Source of the DNA: Spirochaetia bacterium
Lineage (GTDB): Bacteria > Spirochaetota > Spirochaetia > UBA9216
Direction: 5' to 3'
DNA length: 64,000 nucleotides
NCBI GenBank assembly: GCA_965140585.1
Contig: OZ223270.1
Coordinates: 288,001-352,000, forward strand
Part shown: positions 3,529 to 64,000 of the stretch, piece by piece
Layout: each line of letters opens with the position of its first letter
How positions within the stretch are numbered: position 1 is the first letter of the stretch
The notes under the pieces: model-generated
Told to the model about the DNA's origin: nothing
Database searches by the model: none
What the model saw: the letters and a program-made list of their open reading frames with translations, nothing else
Program-made: the position numbers and the translations under genes

Positions 3529-3581
3529 TTGGTTGAATAAATCAACTAACCTAAGTCTAACATAGATCTGCGAACTGTCAA
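3529..3581 (-). promoter_or_regulatory. Promoter of the ROK-GH94 operon with palindromic ROK operator
   Basis: Minus strand: TTGACA (3581-3576), 16 nt, TG-n-TAGACT (3559-3554). The palindrome TTAGTTGA-N5-TCAACCAA (3549-3529) lies just downstream. Confidence 0.65.
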
Positions 3582-3625
3582 TAAAAAATCAGCACTAAAA
3601 ACGGGAAATTTACTGAAAATAAAAT

Positions 3626-3656
3626 TTGACCTTCCCATTTTGGCAAGGTTTATAAT
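3626..3656 (+). promoter_or_regulatory. MerR-type promoter of the glycyl radical enzyme gene
   Basis: TTGACC, 19 bp, TATAAT, with the dyad ACCTTCCCA-TTT-TGGCAAGGT across the spacer. Confidence 0.85.
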
Positions 3657-3685
3657 TTTTTTGTAACCCAAATGGAGGAAAATAT

Positions 3686-6076
3686 ATGATTACTGCAAGA
3701 GTCCAGAGAATGATGGACCGGCTGGAGGTAGAGAAATATCCGATACTAGCCGAAAAGGCCAGGCTTACAATTGAAGCATGGAACAGTCACGAAGGTCTTC
3801 CTTCCGTCCTGCAGCGTGCTTATGCTACCGCACACTACCTTGATAACCGCACCATTTATATAGATGACGATGAGCTTATTGCCGGAAATGTATCCAGCAA
3901 ACCGATGGGAATGGAAGCGGCAACATGGGGGCCCTTCTGGGAGGATAAGGATCTCGAAACAATGGACAGCGTTTTTGAGATCAGTGATGAGGATCGTAAA
4001 ACACTTAGAGGCCTTGATTCTTTCTGGGAAGGCAAGGGCCGTCAGATTTATGAATGGCAGGGACGTTACTATGACGATCACCACTTATGGCCTTTTATAA
4101 GATCAGGAATCCTCTGCCCGCCCTGGACAGATAAAACCAAGGGACGCGGTTCAGGAGGCGCAGGCTTCGGATGGGGTCTGGGAATCGGACTCTCATTCTT
4201 TGTTCCTGACTATGAAAAAATTGTAAAAGAAGGAATAAGCAAAACCCTGCATGATGCTGAGCAGGAACTTTTAACTCTCAGATACCATGACCAGGATTCA
4301 ATCGACAAGGCGGACTACCTTAAGGCGGTAATTATTGCGCTCAGTTCCATGGTAAGAATGTACCACCGCTACGGAGACGCCTGTCAGAAGAAGGCGGATG
4401 AAACTGCTGATGAAACACGAAAGAAGGAATTTCTGCGAATGGCCGACACCTGTCACTGGATAGCCGATAATCCTTCCCGCAATTTCCGTGACGCCCTTCA
4501 GAATTTCTATTTTTACTGGATGATGATTGCCCACGGAGTTACTCCGGGCGGCCGCTTTGACCAGTACATGTACCCATTCTATAAAAAAGACATTGAATCC
4601 GGTGAAATTACCGAGGATGAGGTAATAGAACTTCTGGGAATGCTTCGAATCAAGATAATGCAGTTCAACTTTATAAGCGGCGGAGCACTTCAGCGCGATA
4701 AATGGGCAGGAATGGCCAGATGGCACAACTTTGTCATCGGCGGTGTTGATAAAGACGGAAACGACGCAACAAACGAACTGTCCTACCATGTTCTTCAGGC
4801 TGCATTCGACGTAAGAGTTCCGCAGTACACAATTACTATCAGGGTAAACAAGAACACTCCCGACGCACTTATGAAAAAGGGAGCAGAACTGGTAAGAACG
4901 GGAATAGGAATGCCGGCCTTTATATCCGACGACAGCTATATCTCCGGTCTTGTTGACCAGGGAGTCCCGCTTGAAGAGGCTCGCGGCTATGCCCTTGCCG
5001 GCTGTCTGGATCTAAACATCCCCGGAAAATCCAGAATAAACGCCCTGGGTATGTTCATAGTTCCAAAGGTTCTGGATATAACAATGCATAACGGGTTACT
5101 TACTTCAACCGGAGAGCAGATCGGTCCTAAAACCGGAGAAATGAAAGACTTTAAAACCTTTGATGAGTTCTACACTGCCTTCAAGACCCAGCTTTTTCAC
5201 TTTATGGGTATGTACAATGAGGAACATAATATTCTTATCCATGTAACCCACCATACTCAGCCTGATGTAGTGCATTCAGCCTTCACCTATGAGGGTATAA
5301 CTTCCGGAAAGGACATGAATCAGCGGAAGATGTTCTACGAGAATGCATCAATGTTCAATCCTGTAGGCATGATTAACGTCGTAAATTCAATGGCAGCTGT
5401 TAAGAAACTTGTTTTTGATGAAAAGAAATTTTCAATGGTAGAACTCTATTCTGCTATTGAGGCTGACTGGCTCGGATATGAAAATATTCAGGATCTCTGC
5501 CTGAATGCTCCAAAATACGGAAACAACGACTCTTTCGTTGATGAAATTGCCAAAGATCTCTTCGGATACTGGATATCATCAACTTCAAAATTCAGATCCG
5601 TTTACGGTGAACAGCCCAGACCGACCGGAATATCAATTACCGCGCACGCACCGGGCGGTTCATACACCTGCGCAACTCCTGACGGCCGAAAATCTGGTGA
5701 AACCCTCTGTGACGGGGTAGTCTCTCCAGCCCAGGGAAGTGATGTTCATGGTCCAACAGCCTCTCTGCAGAGCGCAATGCAGATCGATCAGACTCCGTTC
5801 AATGCCATGCTGCTGAATATGAAAATTGATCCTAGCGCACTTAAAAGTGATTCTGATCTTATGAAGCTTTCCGCGCTTATCAAAACCTACATGTTCAACG
5901 GCGGAAAACATATTCAGTTCAACGTTGTAGACAATAAAACACTTAGAACTGCACAGATAACACCTGAAAAATACAGGGATCTGATTGTAAGGGTTGCAGG
6001 ATACAGCACCTATTTCACAATTCTCACACCTGCTGTGCAGGAAGAAATCATTAAGCGGACGGAAAATAAGCTATAG
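3686..6076 (+). CDS. Glycyl radical enzyme (PFL-like superfamily), uncharacterised subtype
   Basis: 796 aa. C-terminal RVAGYS glycyl motif (Gly772), HIQFNV motif, and Cys loop AGCLD with a single Cys440, so it is not a true PFL. Confidence 0.93.
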   Translation: MITARVQRMMDRLEVEKYPILAEKARLTIEAWNSHEGLPSVLQRAYATAHYLDNRTIYIDDDELIAGNVSSKPMGMEAATWGPFWEDKDLETMDSVFEISDEDRKTLRGLDSFWEGKGRQIYEWQGRYYDDHHLWPFIRSGILCPPWTDKTKGRGSGGAGFGWGLGIGLSFFVPDYEKIVKEGISKTLHDAEQELLTLRYHDQDSIDKADYLKAVIIALSSMVRMYHRYGDACQKKADETADETRKKEFLRMADTCHWIADNPSRNFRDALQNFYFYWMMIAHGVTPGGRFDQYMYPFYKKDIESGEITEDEVIELLGMLRIKIMQFNFISGGALQRDKWAGMARWHNFVIGGVDKDGNDATNELSYHVLQAAFDVRVPQYTITIRVNKNTPDALMKKGAELVRTGIGMPAFISDDSYISGLVDQGVPLEEARGYALAGCLDLNIPGKSRINALGMFIVPKVLDITMHNGLLTSTGEQIGPKTGEMKDFKTFDEFYTAFKTQLFHFMGMYNEEHNILIHVTHHTQPDVVHSAFTYEGITSGKDMNQRKMFYENASMFNPVGMINVVNSMAAVKKLVFDEKKFSMVELYSAIEADWLGYENIQDLCLNAPKYGNNDSFVDEIAKDLFGYWISSTSKFRSVYGEQPRPTGISITAHAPGGSYTCATPDGRKSGETLCDGVVSPAQGSDVHGPTASLQSAMQIDQTPFNAMLLNMKIDPSALKSDSDLMKLSALIKTYMFNGGKHIQFNVVDNKTLRTAQITPEKYRDLIVRVAGYSTYFTILTPAVQEEIIKRTENKL

Positions 6077-57501: not shown

Positions 57502-58530
57502 ATGAAGGAATCTATAGCAATTCTATGGGATATTGAGAACGTTACCCCGCGTTCAGACTCACTTTTTGTGAATGGACTAATCGAATATGCAAACGACATC
57601 GGAAAGGTTTCGGTTGCAACAGCCTACGGAGACTGGGCCAGACCGCAGATTAGAAAGACATCAGAAGCGCTTGCCGAGCACTCCTTTGAAATGGTCCATG
57701 TTCCGACCAACAAGAAACAGAAAAACAGTGCTGATATGGCCCTGAGCACACACGCAGTTGAGCTCATCTATCAGTATCCTCATATAAGAAAACTGATACT
57801 GGTAACAGGCGATGCAGACTTCAGACCGCTGCTTCAGAGCCTTAGAAAGCATGGTATAGAAACAATAATTATCTGTGATTCACAATCTGCAAGTGAAGAC
57901 CTGCTGCTGCTTGCCGACGAGTACAAGGACTTCCGTGACCTTATTCCCGATCCGGATGAAGATTATCATGATACCAGCAGTACAAGCGCTGAGGTTGAAA
58001 AACACGCCATCAGCCTTCCCGAGGCAGTAAACCTGCTTAAGGAAGCAATAGTTCTGATGAACCGACGTAAAAAGCTCACTACAATGGGCGCGGTCAAAAT
58101 CAGGATGAAACTGCTCAACGATACATTCGATGAAAACCGGCTTGGGTTCAAAACCTGGAAAAAATTTATTCTATTTGCTGAACAGCAGAAAGCCATCGAA
58201 CTGGAACATACCGAGAACGACGTAATCCTGAGACTACCCGAATCGGACAGCAGGGAAGTTGAAACACAGGGAGTCCGCCTGCCGCAGATCATGTACAACA
58301 TGCTCAAGGCAATCAGGGAAAGCAACCAGAAATCTGGCAAATCGCTTATCCCCTTCTCTACTGTAAATAACCGGATGCTTGAGCAGAATATAGACATCAA
58401 GAAATCGGGATATTCACAGATGAAGAAGCTTGTGCAGGATGCCGAGAAGCGCGGACTTGTCAGGGCTGAGAACCAGGGAAAGTTCTGGTATGTTGAAATG
58501 ACCGACGACGGATCCGCCTACTTTAAGTAG
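57502..58530 (+). CDS. NYN (LabA/DUF88) domain protein with C-terminal OST-HTH/LOTUS-like domains
   Basis: WDIENV, KNSADMAL, LVTGDADF; two F/I...GF/Y...KK helical repeats. Confidence 0.85.
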   Translation: MKESIAILWDIENVTPRSDSLFVNGLIEYANDIGKVSVATAYGDWARPQIRKTSEALAEHSFEMVHVPTNKKQKNSADMALSTHAVELIYQYPHIRKLILVTGDADFRPLLQSLRKHGIETIIICDSQSASEDLLLLADEYKDFRDLIPDPDEDYHDTSSTSAEVEKHAISLPEAVNLLKEAIVLMNRRKKLTTMGAVKIRMKLLNDTFDENRLGFKTWKKFILFAEQQKAIELEHTENDVILRLPESDSREVETQGVRLPQIMYNMLKAIRESNQKSGKSLIPFSTVNNRMLEQNIDIKKSGYSQMKKLVQDAEKRGLVRAENQGKFWYVEMTDDGSAYFK

Positions 58531-58542
58531 ACGTTTTCCGGA

Positions 58543-59568
58543 TTAAAAAATAACATTCTGCTCCTGCACGGCCCGTTTAATCTGGTCGTGCTGAGTGTTC
58601 AGGTCTTCAATTTCCTTCTGCCAGAAGGCTCGGCTTCCCCAGTCGGGAAAATGCTGCTGAAACTTGTAGTCATGCCGCTGCGAACCGCACCAGCATAGAA
58701 AATAGATCATCCGCATTGCGCGCAGGGGTTCTATAAGCATCAGGGTTTCGGTGTTGAAAGACCGGAACTCCCGGTAGCCTTCAAGGATTAGGGCTATTTC
58801 CTTTCCTGAGTCAGGTGCATGATCGGGCAGTAGAAGCCAGAGATCCTGAACCGGCAGCGACATGGACATATCATCAAAATCTATCACCATAAGCCCCTCT
58901 CCGGGCCGTTCAAGAAGGTTGCCGCTGTGAAAGTCGCCGTGCACACGTATGAGTTCATCATTTCCGTACTCACTGAATAGGTTATCCACCGATTCCTGCA
59001 GTCTGGTGACAGAGGCCTCCAGATCTGCGTACAGTTCCTGCGGAACCCAGTCGGAGCCGAGAAGTTTATCAACATCAGCCGCAAAGCCTTCCGAAGCCGT
59101 AAGCGTAATACGGTTTTTAGCCTGGCGCTCAGAGCCTACGTTGTGAATCCTTGCCAGTAGTGAACCTACCCTGCCCCAGGCTTCCTCATCGGAGGATTCC
59201 CATAGGCGGCCTCCCTTGCGGGGAAATACGGCAAAGGGCATGCCTTCTATACGTCCAAGTGTAGGAGCTGAGGACTCATCCCCGTCGTCAACCAGACCGG
59301 TAAGTTTTAATGGGGCGGCGACAGGGATATCAGAAGCCTCACAGTCAAGGATGAAGCGGTGTTCCTCAAGAATGGCCTTATCGGACCAGCGTCCCGGACG
59401 GTAGAATTTTACGATATAATAATTTCCTTCATCATCCTTAAGCTCGAAAACGCGGTTGATGTAACTGGGCATGGGCTGGGTGTAGCCGGTAAGATCGATA
59501 TCAAGCCCGGCCTCTACAGCGTCGATTACAAGATCGGGTGACAGGTTTTCAAATTCCGATTTATTCAT
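58543..59568 (-). CDS. srkA: Stress response kinase SrkA/RdoA
   Basis: SYINRV, KFYRPGRWS..ILEEH, HGDFHSGN, DFDD, QDLWLLL. Confidence 0.9.
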   Translation of the reverse strand: MNKSEFENLSPDLVIDAVEAGLDIDLTGYTQPMPSYINRVFELKDDEGNYYIVKFYRPGRWSDKAILEEHRFILDCEASDIPVAAPLKLTGLVDDGDESSAPTLGRIEGMPFAVFPRKGGRLWESSDEEAWGRVGSLLARIHNVGSERQAKNRITLTASEGFAADVDKLLGSDWVPQELYADLEASVTRLQESVDNLFSEYGNDELIRVHGDFHSGNLLERPGEGLMVIDFDDMSMSLPVQDLWLLLPDHAPDSGKEIALILEGYREFRSFNTETLMLIEPLRAMRMIYFLCWCGSQRHDYKFQQHFPDWGSRAFWQKEIEDLNTQHDQIKRAVQEQNVIF

Positions 59569-59615: not shown

Positions 59616-60815
59616 TCATGCGTTGAATTTAATAGTGCAGATAGTTCCTTTATCGTTCACAAGAGTAATTTCACCTTCCAGCTGACTCACCATCATATCT
59701 ATCAGAAACAATCCAAATCCGGACGTCTTCCTGGAAATATAATCTTCAGAAAGGCCCAGGCCGTTATCCCTGATCTCCAATATGACTTTCCCTTTAATCT
59801 GATGCATGCTTAATTCAATCTTTCCTGATTGTCTTCCAATAAATGCATATTTCATTGCGTTTGTTATCAGCTCATTCACGATAATCCCAATCAGAAACAG
59901 CTTTTTCACATCCATAGTAAAATCATCGATATGTTTTTCAAGCTTAATATTATGGACTTCTGAAAAAATTGCCATGACTGCCTGCAACAGATCTTCAAGA
60001 TAATCTTTGACTGAAACCTCATTGAAACTTTCGTTCAAAAGCATCTTCTGATACAGCTGCCCCATACTCTCAACTCTGCCAATCGCATCAAGAAGCGCCG
60101 ATTTGCCTTCTCCATCCGGCATATTATTTGCCTGAAGGCTCAGGAGGGTTTCGATATATACAAAATTATTCTTTATTCGGTGATGAACTTCACGTAGAAT
60201 TATTTCTTTCTGCTCCAGCTGCTGCCTAATTATAACTTCATCTTCCTTCACTTTAATCTGAGCCTGTTTATGAGCTGCCGACTCCTTTTCAAGCAGTATG
60301 TTGGAGTAGCTTAAATCTGATACCATTTTGAAAAATCTGACCAGGAAAGACATCAGATCATCAACATACTCTCTGCTATACCGGGGAACCCTATGAAGCG
60401 CATCGAGATAAAGATCTCTGTCGAAGCCGTATTCTTCTGCCTGCTTGATAAAAACATCCTCATCTACAACATCTTCTTCATAGAAAAACTGTCCCGTAAA
60501 AATGTTTCCTATGTGTTTTCCACCAATATACAGCGGCGTTACAACATCCCAGAGACCGTTTTTACATTTATACGACGCGACTTCGCCCGGTTTGATTCTG
60601 CTGGACAGGTTAAGATCACTTTCAATACAGTTTTTTGCTGATTTATCATTAATCCTGTGAAACTTTGTGCATATATCCTGCCACCCGGTTGCAACAAGAA
60701 TATTTCCTTTTATATCCAGAAGTGCAGAAACCATACCGGTAAATTTATACAGGAGCTCCATAACAGACTGAATTTCTTCACGATTTATAATTTCTTCGAG
60801 ATTGATTTCATCCAT
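59616..60815 (-). CDS. PocR-sensor histidine kinase (HisKA_2 + HATPase), cytoplasmic
   Basis: PocR WQDIC..FHR....C...YKC.NGL...GQF; EVHHRIKNN; NELITNAMKYAF; DNG.G. Confidence 0.88.
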   Translation of the reverse strand: MDEINLEEIINREEIQSVMELLYKFTGMVSALLDIKGNILVATGWQDICTKFHRINDKSAKNCIESDLNLSSRIKPGEVASYKCKNGLWDVVTPLYIGGKHIGNIFTGQFFYEEDVVDEDVFIKQAEEYGFDRDLYLDALHRVPRYSREYVDDLMSFLVRFFKMVSDLSYSNILLEKESAAHKQAQIKVKEDEVIIRQQLEQKEIILREVHHRIKNNFVYIETLLSLQANNMPDGEGKSALLDAIGRVESMGQLYQKMLLNESFNEVSVKDYLEDLLQAVMAIFSEVHNIKLEKHIDDFTMDVKKLFLIGIIVNELITNAMKYAFIGRQSGKIELSMHQIKGKVILEIRDNGLGLSEDYISRKTSGFGLFLIDMMVSQLEGEITLVNDKGTICTIKFNA

Positions 60816-60892: not shown

Positions 60893-60948
60893 TTGACATT
60901 ATATAGAACTTATTATATATTACTAAAAGCAAATGTTGCTAAGCGCAA
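60893..60948 (+). promoter_or_regulatory. Promoter of the marR-methyltransferase-peptide-rSAM operon with tandem TTGC-N5-GCAA sites
   Basis: TTGACA (60893)-17-TATATT (60916); TTACTAAAAGCAA (60920-60932) and TTGCTAAGCGCAA (60936-60948). Confidence 0.6.
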
Positions 60949-60968: not shown

Positions 60969-61376
60969 TTGGAGAACATTTTGATCGACCAGATACTTGA
61001 GTTGAAAAAAAAGTGTAATTTCGACCGCGAGATAGGAGAAGCCCTTAACCTTAAAGATAAGGAAATTTCCGCCATTGCCGCCATCGCTGAATGCAGTGAA
61101 CTTACATCAAAAGAAGTATCAGATCAGATTTTGCTGTCACCTTCCAGAGGAAGCAGGGTGATAACCGGCCTTATGGAAAAGGGCCTTGTTGAACTTAACC
61201 ACAACAGCGACGACAGAAGGGTTATCAATATCACTCTTACCAGGGCCGGAGAAGCATGCTACTCAAATATGGTTGAAGAAATAAAGAAATGCGAACGGCG
61301 CCTTACAGAGAATCTTACCGAGCAGGAAAAGCTGATTATTTCAGAAGGCCTGCAGATATTACTGAAAACGATATAG
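60969..61376 (+). CDS. MarR family regulator with four Cys
   Basis: LSPSRGSRVITGLMEKGLV and DRR...LT..G winged helix. Confidence 0.88.
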   Translation: MENILIDQILELKKKCNFDREIGEALNLKDKEISAIAAIAECSELTSKEVSDQILLSPSRGSRVITGLMEKGLVELNHNSDDRRVINITLTRAGEACYSNMVEEIKKCERRLTENLTEQEKLIISEGLQILLKTI

Positions 61377-61384
61377 GAGAGAAA

Positions 61385-62047
61385 ATGGCTGAAACAAATA
61401 CTTCAAACGCAATAAATATAAGGTATTCGGATCTGGCGGAAACAAGCTGCTGCCTTTCATGCGGCGGGGCTGTAAATCATAGCAAGGCTAAAACCGGTGA
61501 GGTTTGTGTCGATCTTGGAAGCGGAAGAGGTACTGACGTCCTCAGGCTGGCTGAAGATGTGGGCGAAACAGGTTTTGTATACGGTATTGATCTTTCAGAC
61601 GGGATGATACGGAAAGCCGAAAAAACAGCAGAAAGGCTTGGCGTTAAAAACGTGAAATTTGAACAGGCGGATCTTGAAGCACTTCCGGTTGAAGATTCCA
61701 CCGTTAATCTAGTGATCTCAAACTGTGTAATTAATCATGCTGAAAACAAACAGAATGTATGGAACGAAGTTTACAGAATTCTGAAAAAGGGCGGACGCTT
61801 TGTTGTCAGTGATATCTATTCAAGTGAACCTGTTCCTGAAGAATATAAAAACGATCCTGAAGCAGTAGCAGAATGCTGGGCGGGCTCAGTTACCCGTGAA
61901 GTGTATCTGAATCAGCTTGCTGCAGCGGGATTTAAGGATGTAGAGATTCTTGAAGAAAGCAATCCCTACCCCAAAGGCAAGATTGAAGTTAGCAGCTGGA
62001 CCATTCTGGGCAAAAAACCGGGTGGCTGCAGCTGTAACAATAATTAA
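61385..62047 (+). CDS. Class I SAM methyltransferase, arsenite methyltransferase (ArsM)-like
   Basis: DLGSGRG motif I, SNCVIN, ECWAGS, N-terminal CCLSCGG and C-terminal CSC. ATG 61385 follows an AGGAGA RBS. Confidence 0.82.
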   Translation: MAETNTSNAINIRYSDLAETSCCLSCGGAVNHSKAKTGEVCVDLGSGRGTDVLRLAEDVGETGFVYGIDLSDGMIRKAEKTAERLGVKNVKFEQADLEALPVEDSTVNLVISNCVINHAENKQNVWNEVYRILKKGGRFVVSDIYSSEPVPEEYKNDPEAVAECWAGSVTREVYLNQLAAAGFKDVEILEESNPYPKGKIEVSSWTILGKKPGGCSCNNN

Positions 62048-62058
62048 AGGAGTGGTAG

Positions 62059-62154
62059 ATGAAATCACTTATCAAGAAGAAACCGGAAGGCAAAAAAGAA
62101 GTAGCTCAGTGCTGCGCTAAGCTTTCCAAAGTTGTGGCCGGCTGCCACGATTAA
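62059..62154 (+). CDS. 31-aa Cys-containing RiPP precursor peptide candidate MKSLIKKKPEGKKEVAQCCAKLSKVVAGCHD
   Basis: Below the ORF-track size cutoff and read manually. AAGGAG RBS 6 nt before ATG 62059, TAA at 62152-62154, directly upstream of a SPASM radical SAM gene. Confidence 0.8.
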   Translation: MKSLIKKKPEGKKEVAQCCAKLSKVVAGCHD

Positions 62155-62161
62155 TCCTTTA

Positions 62162-62192
62162 CCGGAGCGGAGGGTTTAATCCTCCGTTCCGG
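62162..62192 (+). other. Strong stem-loop between the precursor and maturase genes
   Basis: CCGGAGCGGAGGG-TTTAA-TCCTCCGTTCCGG: 13-bp stem with 2 G-U pairs and no U-tail. Confidence 0.75.
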
Positions 62193-62217
62193 ATCTTATC
62201 AGGGGCTATTTTAATTT

Positions 62218-63540
62218 ATGGAATATACATTATCGAAACATAATATTATCGGGAAACTTGCGGACTCAGAAAACTGGTACATCGTAAACCCTTTAAGCAG
62301 GAACGCAGACATCATTACTTCTGAAACCGCTGATGCGCTGAATGAGGGAACCTTTACAAATCATGAAGAACTTCTGGAAAAGGGCTACATCGTTGACCTC
62401 ACTGAAGAGGATAAAACATTCAGAACTGAATACCTGAGTTTCATTGACAACCGTGAAACTGATGAAATCCAAATCTTTTATGTACCGACCTATGCCTGCA
62501 ACTTTGCATGTTCATACTGCTACCAGGAAGGCTATTCTCATGATAAGAACGAAAAGCCGCTGGAAGTAATTGATGCATTTTTCAGTTACATCGATAAGGA
62601 ATTCGCCGGACGCAGAAAATATATAACCGTTTTCGGAGGCGAACCTATGCTGCCGGATCCGCTGACCCGGGAAAAACTCGGCCATATTATTAAGAATGCC
62701 AATGAGAGAAATCTGTCTCTTGCCTTTGTGACCAACGGCTATACCCTTGAATCCTACGTTCCGATGCTGCAGATGGCCAGCGTAAGGGAAGTACAGGTTA
62801 CCCTGGACGGACCGGCAGAAGTTCATGATAAGCGCAGAATGCTCAGAGGCGGAAAGGGTACTTTCAGTGAAATAGCCGACGGAATAAATGCAGCTCTCAG
62901 AGCAGACATTCCAATAAACCTGAGGGCGGTTATAGACAGGGACAACCTGCCTTCACTGCCTGAGCTTGCAGAGTTTGCAGTATCACAGGGATGGACCGAT
63001 AATAAACTTTTTAAAACACAGCTCGGCCGAAATTATGAACTGCACTACTGTCAGGCGGATGAGAACAGACTTTACGACAGACTGACAATGTATGCAGATC
63101 TGTATGAGCTTATTAAGAAAAATCCGGTGATAATGCAGTTTCACCGTCCGGCATATTCGATTTCAAGATTTCTATTTGACAACGGAGAGATGCCGGAACC
63201 GCTGTTTGACTCATGTCCGGGCTGCAAAACCGAGTGGGCCTTTGACTACACAGGAAACATCTACTCGTGCACCGCGACAGTCGGTAAGAGCGGAGAAGAA
63301 CTTGGAACTTTTTATCCTTCTGTTACAAGGAAGGAAGAAATAATAGAAGAATGGCAGGATCGCGATGTCACATCAATCAGTGAATGCGCGGACTGTTCAC
63401 TTAAGCTGGCATGCGGCGGAGGCTGTGCTTCTGTAGCCAAGAACAAATCCGGCAGGATTTGCTCCCCTGACTGCCGTCCTGTAGACGGACTGTTGTCATA
63501 CGGACTTTCGCTTTATTTCGGAGAAGAAGCGGAAGCTTAA
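62218..63540 (+). CDS. Radical SAM/SPASM peptide maturase with putative N-terminal RRE
   Basis: CNFACSYC, GGEP, VTNG, TLDG...HD..R; SPASM CPGC...G.IYSC...CADC...CGGGC...C; about 80-aa N-terminal extension ending L..KGYIV. Confidence 0.92.
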   Translation: MEYTLSKHNIIGKLADSENWYIVNPLSRNADIITSETADALNEGTFTNHEELLEKGYIVDLTEEDKTFRTEYLSFIDNRETDEIQIFYVPTYACNFACSYCYQEGYSHDKNEKPLEVIDAFFSYIDKEFAGRRKYITVFGGEPMLPDPLTREKLGHIIKNANERNLSLAFVTNGYTLESYVPMLQMASVREVQVTLDGPAEVHDKRRMLRGGKGTFSEIADGINAALRADIPINLRAVIDRDNLPSLPELAEFAVSQGWTDNKLFKTQLGRNYELHYCQADENRLYDRLTMYADLYELIKKNPVIMQFHRPAYSISRFLFDNGEMPEPLFDSCPGCKTEWAFDYTGNIYSCTATVGKSGEELGTFYPSVTRKEEIIEEWQDRDVTSISECADCSLKLACGGGCASVAKNKSGRICSPDCRPVDGLLSYGLSLYFGEEAEA

Positions 63541-63576
63541 ATAAGTAATTTTAACCCACACGAAAGGAGTTTAGAT

Positions 63577-64000
63577 ATGGCAGGAAAAATTAAAGAGATT
63601 CAGCAGGCAGATTTTGAGAATGAAGTACTGAAAGCAGATAAGGTAGCTGTAGATTTCTACTCAACCGAATGTCCGCCCTGTGAGGCGCTTGCAGCTAAGT
63701 ATGAAAGCCTCAGTATAATATACGGTGATGATATAAAATTTATCAAAATATTCCGTCAGGGAAACAGAGAACTTGCACAGGAACTTGATATCAGCGGTTC
63801 ACCTACAGTTATATTCTATAATAACGGAGAGAGAACCGGAGCAACACTCACAGGCGGGATAAAAAGATCAGAGCTGATGGAAAACCTTGATGCTCTTCTT
63901 CCTGCAGAAAAAGTAGAAGAAATTCATGCAAAGATTGCACCCGTGGTTACCAACGCTGATGTTGTAATCCTCGGCGGCGGGCCTGCAGGTCTTACTGCAG
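63577..64000 (+). CDS. Thioredoxin - thioredoxin reductase-like fusion (3' end beyond window edge)
   Basis: Manual translation gives MAGKIKEI...DFYSTECPPC...SPT...DVVILGGGPAGLTA with no stop between the two domains; AAGGAG RBS. Confidence 0.85.
   Translation, partial: MAGKIKEIQQADFENEVLKADKVAVDFYSTECPPCEALAAKYESLSIIYGDDIKFIKIFRQGNRELAQELDISGSPTVIFYNNGERTGATLTGGIKRSELMENLDALLPAEKVEEIHAKIAPVVTNADVVILGGGPAGLTA

Follow-up and report, generated by a model that had tools for sequence, protein, structure and literature searches.

The operon at positions 60969–64000 of the window, the 64,000-nt stretch of Spirochaetia DNA analysed here, encodes a MarR-family regulator followed by a four-gene cassette. 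The cassette consists of a shortened ArsM-type methyltransferase, a 31-aa cysteine peptide, a radical S-adenosylmethionine (rSAM) enzyme with a SPASM domain, and a thioredoxin–thioredoxin reductase (Trx-TrxR) fusion. It is read as an rSAM/SPASM peptide maturation system with an unprecedented fixed module, the ArsM-type enzyme and the Trx-TrxR, and with a cofactor-like, invariant peptide core. An earlier note, made from the sequence alone, had proposed an undescribed system for a peptide made on the ribosome and modified after translation (RiPP) at this place, and its interpretation is partly supported. The five co-oriented + strand genes that it listed, with intergenic gaps of 8, 11, 63 and 36 nt, were confirmed to the base.

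Related loci were collected from four sets besides a sample of Spirochaetota genomes: 4 reference-genome loci, 8 more distant matches, metagenome contigs (the best 80 of 302 confirmed relatives) and a sample of Bacteroidota genomes. The rSAM gene is found in 44 of 401 Spirochaetota genomes at E ≤ 1e-50, approximately one in nine (37 of the 336 high-quality genomes, 26 of 153 genera). Among 401 Bacteroidota genomes, 4 have it, a count that covers the query genome, and the carriers include some anaerobic Bacteroidota. The conserved small Cys gene that the note expected beside the rSAM gene is present in 120 of 124 rSAM-bearing loci. The methyltransferase and the Trx-TrxR are constant companions, as it had also proposed, each being found in 112 of the 124. 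Nine of the 12 loci without the methyltransferase have less than 800 nt of upstream sequence; at L084, L098 and L111 it was not detected despite at least 3.6 kb upstream. Eleven of the 12 loci without Trx-TrxR have less than 700 nt downstream; the twelfth, L084, has 4 kb. Where all four genes are present, they lie on one strand in the order methyltransferase, peptide, rSAM, Trx-TrxR in 103 of 105 loci (L045 and L133 are the exceptions). Because the core four genes recur in the same order, the arrangement is, judged by gene order, far beyond chance. This architecture is kept at 34–39% rSAM identity, in 7 of the 8 distant loci. The methyltransferase is beside the rSAM gene in 43 of the 44 rSAM-positive Spirochaetota genomes, the exception being a genome that is 71% complete (G169). 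A 62%-identical methyltransferase is present in one genome, G040, that gave no rSAM match.

The cysteine peptide and its predicted maturase

The peptide has a leader, MKSLIKK, and a C-terminal core, AQCCAK-x-S-x4-GCHD-stop. The core motif across the family is AQCC[A/S/T]K-x-S-x4-GCHD-stop, and the peptide is single copy at each locus where it was detected. A comparison of 117 distinct DNA versions of the 16-codon core shows no change at A, C, C, K, G, C, H and D while every synonymous codon for them is in use, and a stop directly after the Asp in each of the 117. There are 58 distinct amino acid versions of the core, sampled across two phyla, with 8 of 16 positions fixed. Because the residues are fixed while synonymous codons vary, and the stop is fixed as well, the codon pattern is that of a real translated gene under strong selection at the protein level. 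Of the four loci without the peptide, three (L008, L113 and L115) break off in the rSAM gene itself or no more than 149 nt upstream of it; at the fourth, L087, no peptide was found despite 755 nt upstream. The peptide matches no NCBIfam or Pfam family, and no precursor model.

The rSAM enzyme matches PF04055 at 72.7 bits. C94, C98 and C101 of its CX3CX2C motif are invariant in 37 aligned sequences, as are the SPASM cysteines C333, C351, C390, C393, C399, C403 and C419, and the CX3CX2C motif is present in all but 2 of the 121 members of the rSAM cluster. The Pfam SPASM model gave no match to the enzyme; its C-terminal region aligns to the SPASM domain of CteB, which is its closest solved relative by sequence (2e-16). 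The AF2 model of the enzyme (pLDDT 92.2, pTM 0.89) displays an N-terminal domain at residues 10–79, with strands at positions 10–13, 20–24 and 29–33 and helices at 35–42, 49–54 and 61–79. This modelled three-strand, three-helix domain is a fold of the RiPP recognition element (RRE) type. CteB (5why/5wgg) occupies ranks 1–3 among the best solved folds, which also include anSME, SuiB and ChlB.

The enzyme aligns end to end with the NCBIfam rSAM/SPASM peptide maturases, and all scores are far under the cut-offs. The best match is to CefB (NF038107; 135.7 bits, cut-off 600). It is followed by TIGR04463 (130.1 bits, cut-off 525), PapB (NF047865; 111.1, cut-off 340), the Clo7bot maturase (106.1, cut-off 600), SCIFF ScfB (TIGR03974; 79.7, cut-off 425), mycofactocin MftC (TIGR03962; 67.6, cut-off 265) and QhpD (61.4, cut-off 453). 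With these scores and a peptide that matches no family, the claim that the cassette is none of the named systems stands.

Co-folding of the rSAM enzyme with the peptide, from an alignment of each, gave a score of 0.80 (runs of 0.81, 0.79 and 0.80), compared with 0.06 for the best control; 58 of 80 solved complexes attain this mark, as do 2 of 110 mismatched pairs. At least 44% of contacts are common to the runs, and the partner pLDDT is at least 44. In the predicted interface, peptide positions 1–7, i.e., the conserved leader M-x-S-L-I-x-K, face rSAM positions 21–23, 29–33, 37, 48–55, 319–325 and 430–438, and the leader pairs with RRE strand 29–33. The co-fold supports binding of the leader by the RRE and, together with the modelled N-terminal domain, it upholds the proposal of a peptide with an RRE-bearing rSAM/SPASM maturase.

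The methyltransferase, its putative thiol partners and the surrounding genes

Cys26, Cys114 and Cys164 of the methyltransferase align with Cys72, Cys174 and Cys224 of CmArsM (structures 4fr0/4kw7). They are kept in 32, 33 and 33, respectively, of 33 aligned orthologues, and an N-terminal CC pair (positions 22–23), probably the equivalent of CmArsM Cys44, is kept in 29 of the 33; the alignment includes the truncated L020 sequence and an L018 row with a read-through artefact. The enzyme from the window ends in a Cys-bearing tail, GGCSCNNN, and Cys-rich C-terminal tails (CC, CxC or CCCC) are present in about half of 106 methyltransferases of at least 150 aa. The match to the ArsM model NF008823 spans profile positions 59–233 of 272, and the enzyme shares 43% identity with a canonical ArsM of 263 aa from the same phylum, which scores 341 bits.

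Excerpts of PMC6138428 describe ArsM enzymes as having four conserved cysteines, two of which bind the arsenical. The N-terminal Cys pair reduces the pentavalent intermediate and becomes a disulfide, for which thioredoxin is the proposed reductant, and the preferred substrate is thiol-conjugated As(III), delivered via thiol transfer. The cassette encodes each element of the scheme given in those excerpts and, in addition, a three-Cys peptide and its maturase.

The MarR and Trx-TrxR proteins have conserved cysteines of their own. In the MarR protein, Cys16 is conserved in 19 of the 19 rows that have the position and Cys108 in 21 of 21; 18 of 33 loci carry a MarR homologue upstream of the cassette. 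The Trx-TrxR fusion scores 319.8 bits with TIGR01292 (cut-off 343.45), and its Trx domain 68.8 bits with PF00085. Of 97 fusions, 87 have CPPC and 7 have CAPC as the Trx motif, and 94 have CATC in the reductase. An extra thioredoxin of 149–165 aa, with a signal-peptide-like N-terminus, is found between the methyltransferase and the peptide at L073:1257–1718 and in L076, L092, L094, L097, L103, L109, L114 and L125. Another, of 124 aa and with a WCQPC or WCGPC motif, lies between the rSAM and Trx-TrxR genes at L064:2014–2388 and in L081, L094 and L125.

Other ArsM-type genes were observed outside the cassette. Canonical ArsM paralogues of 263–269 aa (341 and 334 bits, cut-off 263) lie elsewhere in cassette-bearing genomes. 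In L135 (positions 3558–3809 and 3851–4639), and also in L134 and L136, the canonical ArsM is preceded by an AbrB-type protein of 84–94 aa, which passes the HgcC model (86.9 bits, cut-off 70) and begins with CC-x4-C; in L138 a MarR-like regulator precedes it instead. Five genomes of one genus (G015, G042, G065, G085 and G215) have ArsM-like matches of 256–261 aa with one in-frame TGA, outside the cassette, which may represent the known selenoprotein form of arsenite methyltransferase. Within the cassette, the methyltransferases of six loci of a distant clade (L038–L043) stop at a TGA where other orthologues carry Cys-rich tails. A second stop follows 0–7 codons past the TGA, and L043 has a double TGA. 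Selenocysteine at this position was rejected: of 5 TGA-ending genomes, none has a SelB (TIGR00475) match above the cut-off, so the TGA is probably a plain stop.

The features of the region are listed in Table 1. The promoter is only suggestive because the number of sigma-70-like sites in the region, 8, is not above that in shuffled sequences (6.2 ± 2.3). The ATG of the methyltransferase at 61385 is preceded by AGGAG; an alternative, longer ORF from 61289 would overlap the MarR gene. None of 200 shuffles was as stable as the stem-loop that follows the peptide gene, and a hairpin of different sequence is at the equivalent place in L006; the structure is a possible attenuator or mRNA stabiliser. 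The full Trx-TrxR gene is at L004:3578–4861 in the genome, followed by a terminator-like hairpin and T-run at L004:4884–4916. A 2-hydroxyacid dehydrogenase gene flanks the operon downstream. The genes flanking the operon are not repeated at related loci, with the exception of the near-identical genome of L005.

Table 1. Features of the operon and its upstream flank, with positions in the window
Feature	Position	Strand	Evidence or remark
NYN-domain protein	57502–58530	+	upstream flank, unrelated to the cassette
APH-family kinase	58543–59568	-	upstream flank, unrelated to the cassette
PocR-sensor histidine kinase	59616–60815	-	divergent from MarR, unrelated to the cassette
Sigma-70-like promoter, TTGACA-17-TATATT	60893–60921	+	11/12 consensus matches, upstream of MarR
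MarR-family regulator, 135 aa	60969–61376	+	PF12802, 29.9 bits (cut-off 27)
Shortened ArsM-type SAM methyltransferase, 220 aa	61385–62047	+	NF008823, 199.7 bits (cut-off 263)
Cys precursor peptide, 31 aa, MKSLIKKKPEGKKEVAQCCAKLSKVVAGCHD	62059–62154	+	AGGAG 8 nt upstream; core in 120/124 loci
14-bp stem-loop directly 3' of the peptide stop codon	62162–62192	+	-27.3 kcal/mol, z = -3.5
RRE + radical SAM + SPASM enzyme, 440 aa	62218–63540	+	CX3CX2C, SPASM cysteines, AF2 model, CteB folds
Trx(CPPC)-TrxR(CATC) fusion	63577–64000	+	cut by the window end; full 427 aa, window-extended 63577–64860

Neighbouring genes at the related loci were compared by clustering ORFs of at least 80 aa from 121 loci, leaving out L001–L003, L005 and L046–L049 (own-genome duplicates or near-identical genome). 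Representatives were annotated for clusters in at least 4 loci, the clusters numbered 16–23, with three loci each, being outside this annotation. The neighbours are DUF302 (20 loci), MarR (19), a Zn-ribbon protein (18), DUF6132 (14), a chemoreceptor (10), DUF1847 (9), NifX-like (9), SQR-like Pyr_redox_2 (7), DUF134 (6), Crp (6), rhodanese (6) and DUF5714 (4). DsrE2-like and DsbD-like proteins occur once each near the cassette; the extra thioredoxins are counted inside the Trx-TrxR cluster and have no separate tally. No exporter, transporter or protease is among the clusters in at least 4 of the 121 loci. The theme of the neighbours is handling of thiols, disulfides and soft metals, not secretion. 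An arsenic-operon context was rejected: the annotated clusters include no ars family. The DUF5714 protein (PF18978) overlaps or abuts the cassette in a distant Spirochaetota clade (L038:2507–3208, L039:6640–7386, L041 and L042). It shows a relationship to MbdU, the model of a 'metal-binding double selenoprotein', with 133–150 bits against a cut-off of 600, and no mention of DUF5714 was found in a full-text literature search.

Proposed function and alternatives

The reading preferred here, with about an even chance of being right as a whole, is that the cassette, of a family without a name, matures a peptide inside the cell and that the modified thiol peptide serves the ArsM-type methyltransferase. 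The chemistry that follows is what we infer from the arrangement. The MarR protein, with its two conserved cysteines, would control the operon in response to a thiol-reactive signal such as an oxidant, an electrophile or a soft metalloid. The peptide would be the substrate of the rSAM enzyme, with MKSLIKK predicted to pair with the third beta-strand of the RRE and to put the core in the active site. By analogy to CteB, PapB and CefB, the enzyme would most likely form a Cys-derived crosslink in the core, e.g., a thioether to a downstream carbon. Cys-to-Asp links are the chemistry of QhpD and PapB, and in the cassette the invariant C-terminal Asp may be the acceptor of a link of this type. The product would be neither exported nor cleaved and would act as a dedicated thiol partner of the methyltransferase. 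It may deliver a soft substrate bound through thiols (a metalloid similar to As(III), cf. As(GS)3 for ArsM) or may supply a resolving Cys pair. The Trx(CPPC)-TrxR, with NAD(P)H, would re-reduce the disulfides of the methylation cycle on the methyltransferase or on the peptide, as in the ArsM scheme. The product is read as intracellular because the methyltransferase keeps the ArsM cysteines and no exporter or protease recurs nearby. The near-invariant core and the lack of a recurrent exporter or protease among the 121 loci are easier to reconcile with a cofactor-like or carrier peptide inside the cell than with a classical secreted RiPP antibiotic.

Several observations weigh against this reading. 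The methyltransferase scores 199.7 bits with NF008823, under the cut-off of 263, and is shorter by approximately 30 N-terminal and 40 C-terminal residues. A separate canonical ArsM is present in seven cassette-bearing genomes; therefore the cassette enzyme may act on a different substrate. None of ArsR, Acr3/ArsB, ArsC, ArsA and ArsD is among the clusters in at least 4 of the 121 loci. At L084, a metagenome contig with flanks of 3.7–4 kb, the peptide and the rSAM gene are found and neither the methyltransferase nor Trx-TrxR was detected. In the co-fold, the core residues of the peptide have no confident placement, and since leader–RRE complexes have already been solved (CteB, SuiB and ChlB), the pass may be a memory of these structures. 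One correlation speaks for the reading, as a link between the peptide and the thiol chemistry of the methyltransferase. Where the methyltransferase is without its N-terminal CC, the peptide has an extra CC upstream of the core in 8 of 9 loci, compared with 15 of 81 loci where the methyltransferase CC is present (L043 was scored by eye), but this association is a lead only: related genomes are not independent, so that its weight is that of about four lineages, with perhaps four independent events. The loci named for the swap are L034, L036, L037, L038–L040, L042 and L043.

The strongest of the alternatives, itself unlikely, is that of the earlier note, a classical RiPP natural product pathway, in which the rSAM enzyme makes sactipeptide or ranthipeptide thioethers and the methyltransferase S-, O- or N-methylates the peptide. 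The Trx-TrxR would just keep the cysteines reduced before modification, and export and leader removal would be due to unlinked genes. The nearest rSAM families, thioether-forming or other peptide maturases with CteB as the best solved relative, are consistent with such a pathway, as are the leader–RRE co-fold, which passes, and the stem-loop 3' of the precursor gene; a stem-loop in this place is common in RiPP operons. However, antimicrobial peptides do not typically have a core so nearly fixed in two phyla, no recurrent exporter or protease is found among the 121 loci, and the ArsM cysteine set is conserved though a peptide methyltransferase has no obvious need of it. The role of peptide tailor, which the earlier note had given to the methyltransferase, is doubtful for the same reason: every ArsM catalytic cysteine is kept, a sign of metalloid or thiol chemistry more than of simple peptide methylation.

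A rather improbable alternative follows the pattern of mycofactocin, PQQ or SCIFF: the peptide would give rise to a redox or thiol cofactor, or be a stress peptide, and would take part in a sulfur or selenium relay. The ArsM-like enzyme would then methylate sulfide, persulfide or selenide, in a relay with the peptide, rhodanese, a DsrE-like protein and Trx-TrxR. The thiol and sulfur proteins among the neighbours (rhodanese at 6 loci, SQR-like Pyr_redox_2 at 7, DsrE2-like, DsbD-like and extra thioredoxins) are in keeping with a relay, and so are an invariant C-terminal core like that of cofactor precursors and the lack of export genes. These neighbours are present in a minority of the loci, though (6–20 of 121), and there is no peptidase to release a small cofactor. 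The ArsM-type Cys arrangement is moreover that described for arsenicals in excerpts of PMC6138428.

The last alternative, that the small ORF is spurious or its adjacency accidental and that an arsenic-methylation/redox operon lies beside an unrelated rSAM gene, has next to no probability and is refuted as far as sequence evidence reaches: the ORF is indeed small and without a Pfam or NCBIfam match, but it has synonymous-only variation at eight fixed residues and a fixed stop, it recurs in 120 of 124 loci with the gene order kept in 103 of 105, and its co-fold score stands far above that of the best control.

The preferred reading, of a thiol peptide serving the methyltransferase, has a more specific form that is a long shot: the peptide would be an rSAM-crosslinked thiol scaffold that carries a soft metalloid for methylation, a stand-in for glutathione as the partner of ArsM. 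To our knowledge the cassette-bearing organisms lack glutathione. This scaffold is compatible with the data because the methyltransferase keeps its ArsM cysteines, the peptide has vicinal CC pairs, about half of the methyltransferases have Cys-rich tails, and the peptide has a CC where that of the methyltransferase is lost. Cooperation of rSAM enzymes with ArsM is also known from arsenosugar and arsinothricin synthesis. In the boldest form of this proposal, the rSAM enzyme would forge a carbon–metalloid or carbon–sulfur–metalloid link on the peptide. If true, no earlier example of an organo-metalloid peptide with a ribosomal template would precede it.

Relation to known systems

The rSAM family and the peptide are unnamed by any NCBIfam (June 2026) or Pfam model, four libraries having been searched, and none of the proteins attains the cut-off of an NCBIfam family. 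Marispirochaeta aestuarii and Spirochaeta isovalerica are named among the homologues and are candidate cultivable carriers. Publicly named homologues of the rSAM enzyme are annotated only as "radical SAM protein", "radical SAM/SPASM domain-containing protein" or "hypothetical protein". A full-text literature search found no description of the cassette or of the peptide motif.

The SCIFF system (ScfA/ScfB; CteA/CteB) is similar in that anaerobes encode an RRE-rSAM-SPASM enzyme beside a single short and highly conserved Cys peptide, and neither an exporter nor a protease is linked to the pair; CteB (5wgg/5why) is also the best solved match of the cassette enzyme in sequence and fold. The SCIFF peptide has a six-Cys motif, whereas the cassette peptide has three core cysteines and a GCHD end, and the cassette enzyme reaches 79.7 of the 425 bits required of ScfB. 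We know of no SCIFF locus with an ArsM-like methyltransferase or a Trx-TrxR. The maturases of the CefA/CefB, TIGR04463, PapB and Clo7bot systems are the top NCBIfam matches to the rSAM enzyme over its full length, including the RRE region. However, the scores are under all of their cut-offs and the cassette peptide matches no precursor model.

In the mycofactocin and PQQ systems there is likewise an invariant C-terminal core, an RRE-rSAM-SPASM enzyme and a product that is used inside the cell. The enzyme QhpD forms Cys-to-Asp/Glu thioethers. The cassette differs in that it is without MftB-F or Pqq genes and without a peptidase, and its rSAM enzyme has the low scores given above for MftC and QhpD.

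In the arsenosugar (ArsS and ArsM) and arsinothricin (ArsL and ArsM) pathways a radical SAM enzyme works with an ArsM-type methyltransferase, and the cassette has the same pairing. The rSAM enzymes of those pathways are without the RRE/SPASM maturase architecture and without a peptide substrate, and the cassette methyltransferase scores 83.7 bits with AsSugarArsM (cut-off 400) and 113.6 with AST ArsM (cut-off 500). Compared with ArsM/AS3MT, the cassette enzyme belongs to the same fold family and has the N-terminal CC and the equivalents of Cys72, Cys174 and Cys224. A Trx system is encoded beside it, which matches the disulfide-cascade model in excerpts of PMC6138428. The differences are its length, 220 aa compared with 263–383 aa, its score of 199.7 compared with 263 bits, and its tie to a peptide and an rSAM enzyme, with ars resistance genes not seen with the cassette here.

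That rSAM/SPASM enzymes mature peptides is well established. The cassette departs from the described systems in its deeply conserved 16-residue core, its constant ArsM-type methyltransferase and its dedicated Trx-TrxR. If characterised, it would define a new class of rSAM-modified peptides, and it could show how thiol-reactive metalloids or sulfur species are dealt with in anaerobes. A whole clade of short "ArsM-like" enzymes, which from their NCBIfam scores are expected to be annotated only generically, would gain a function as well.

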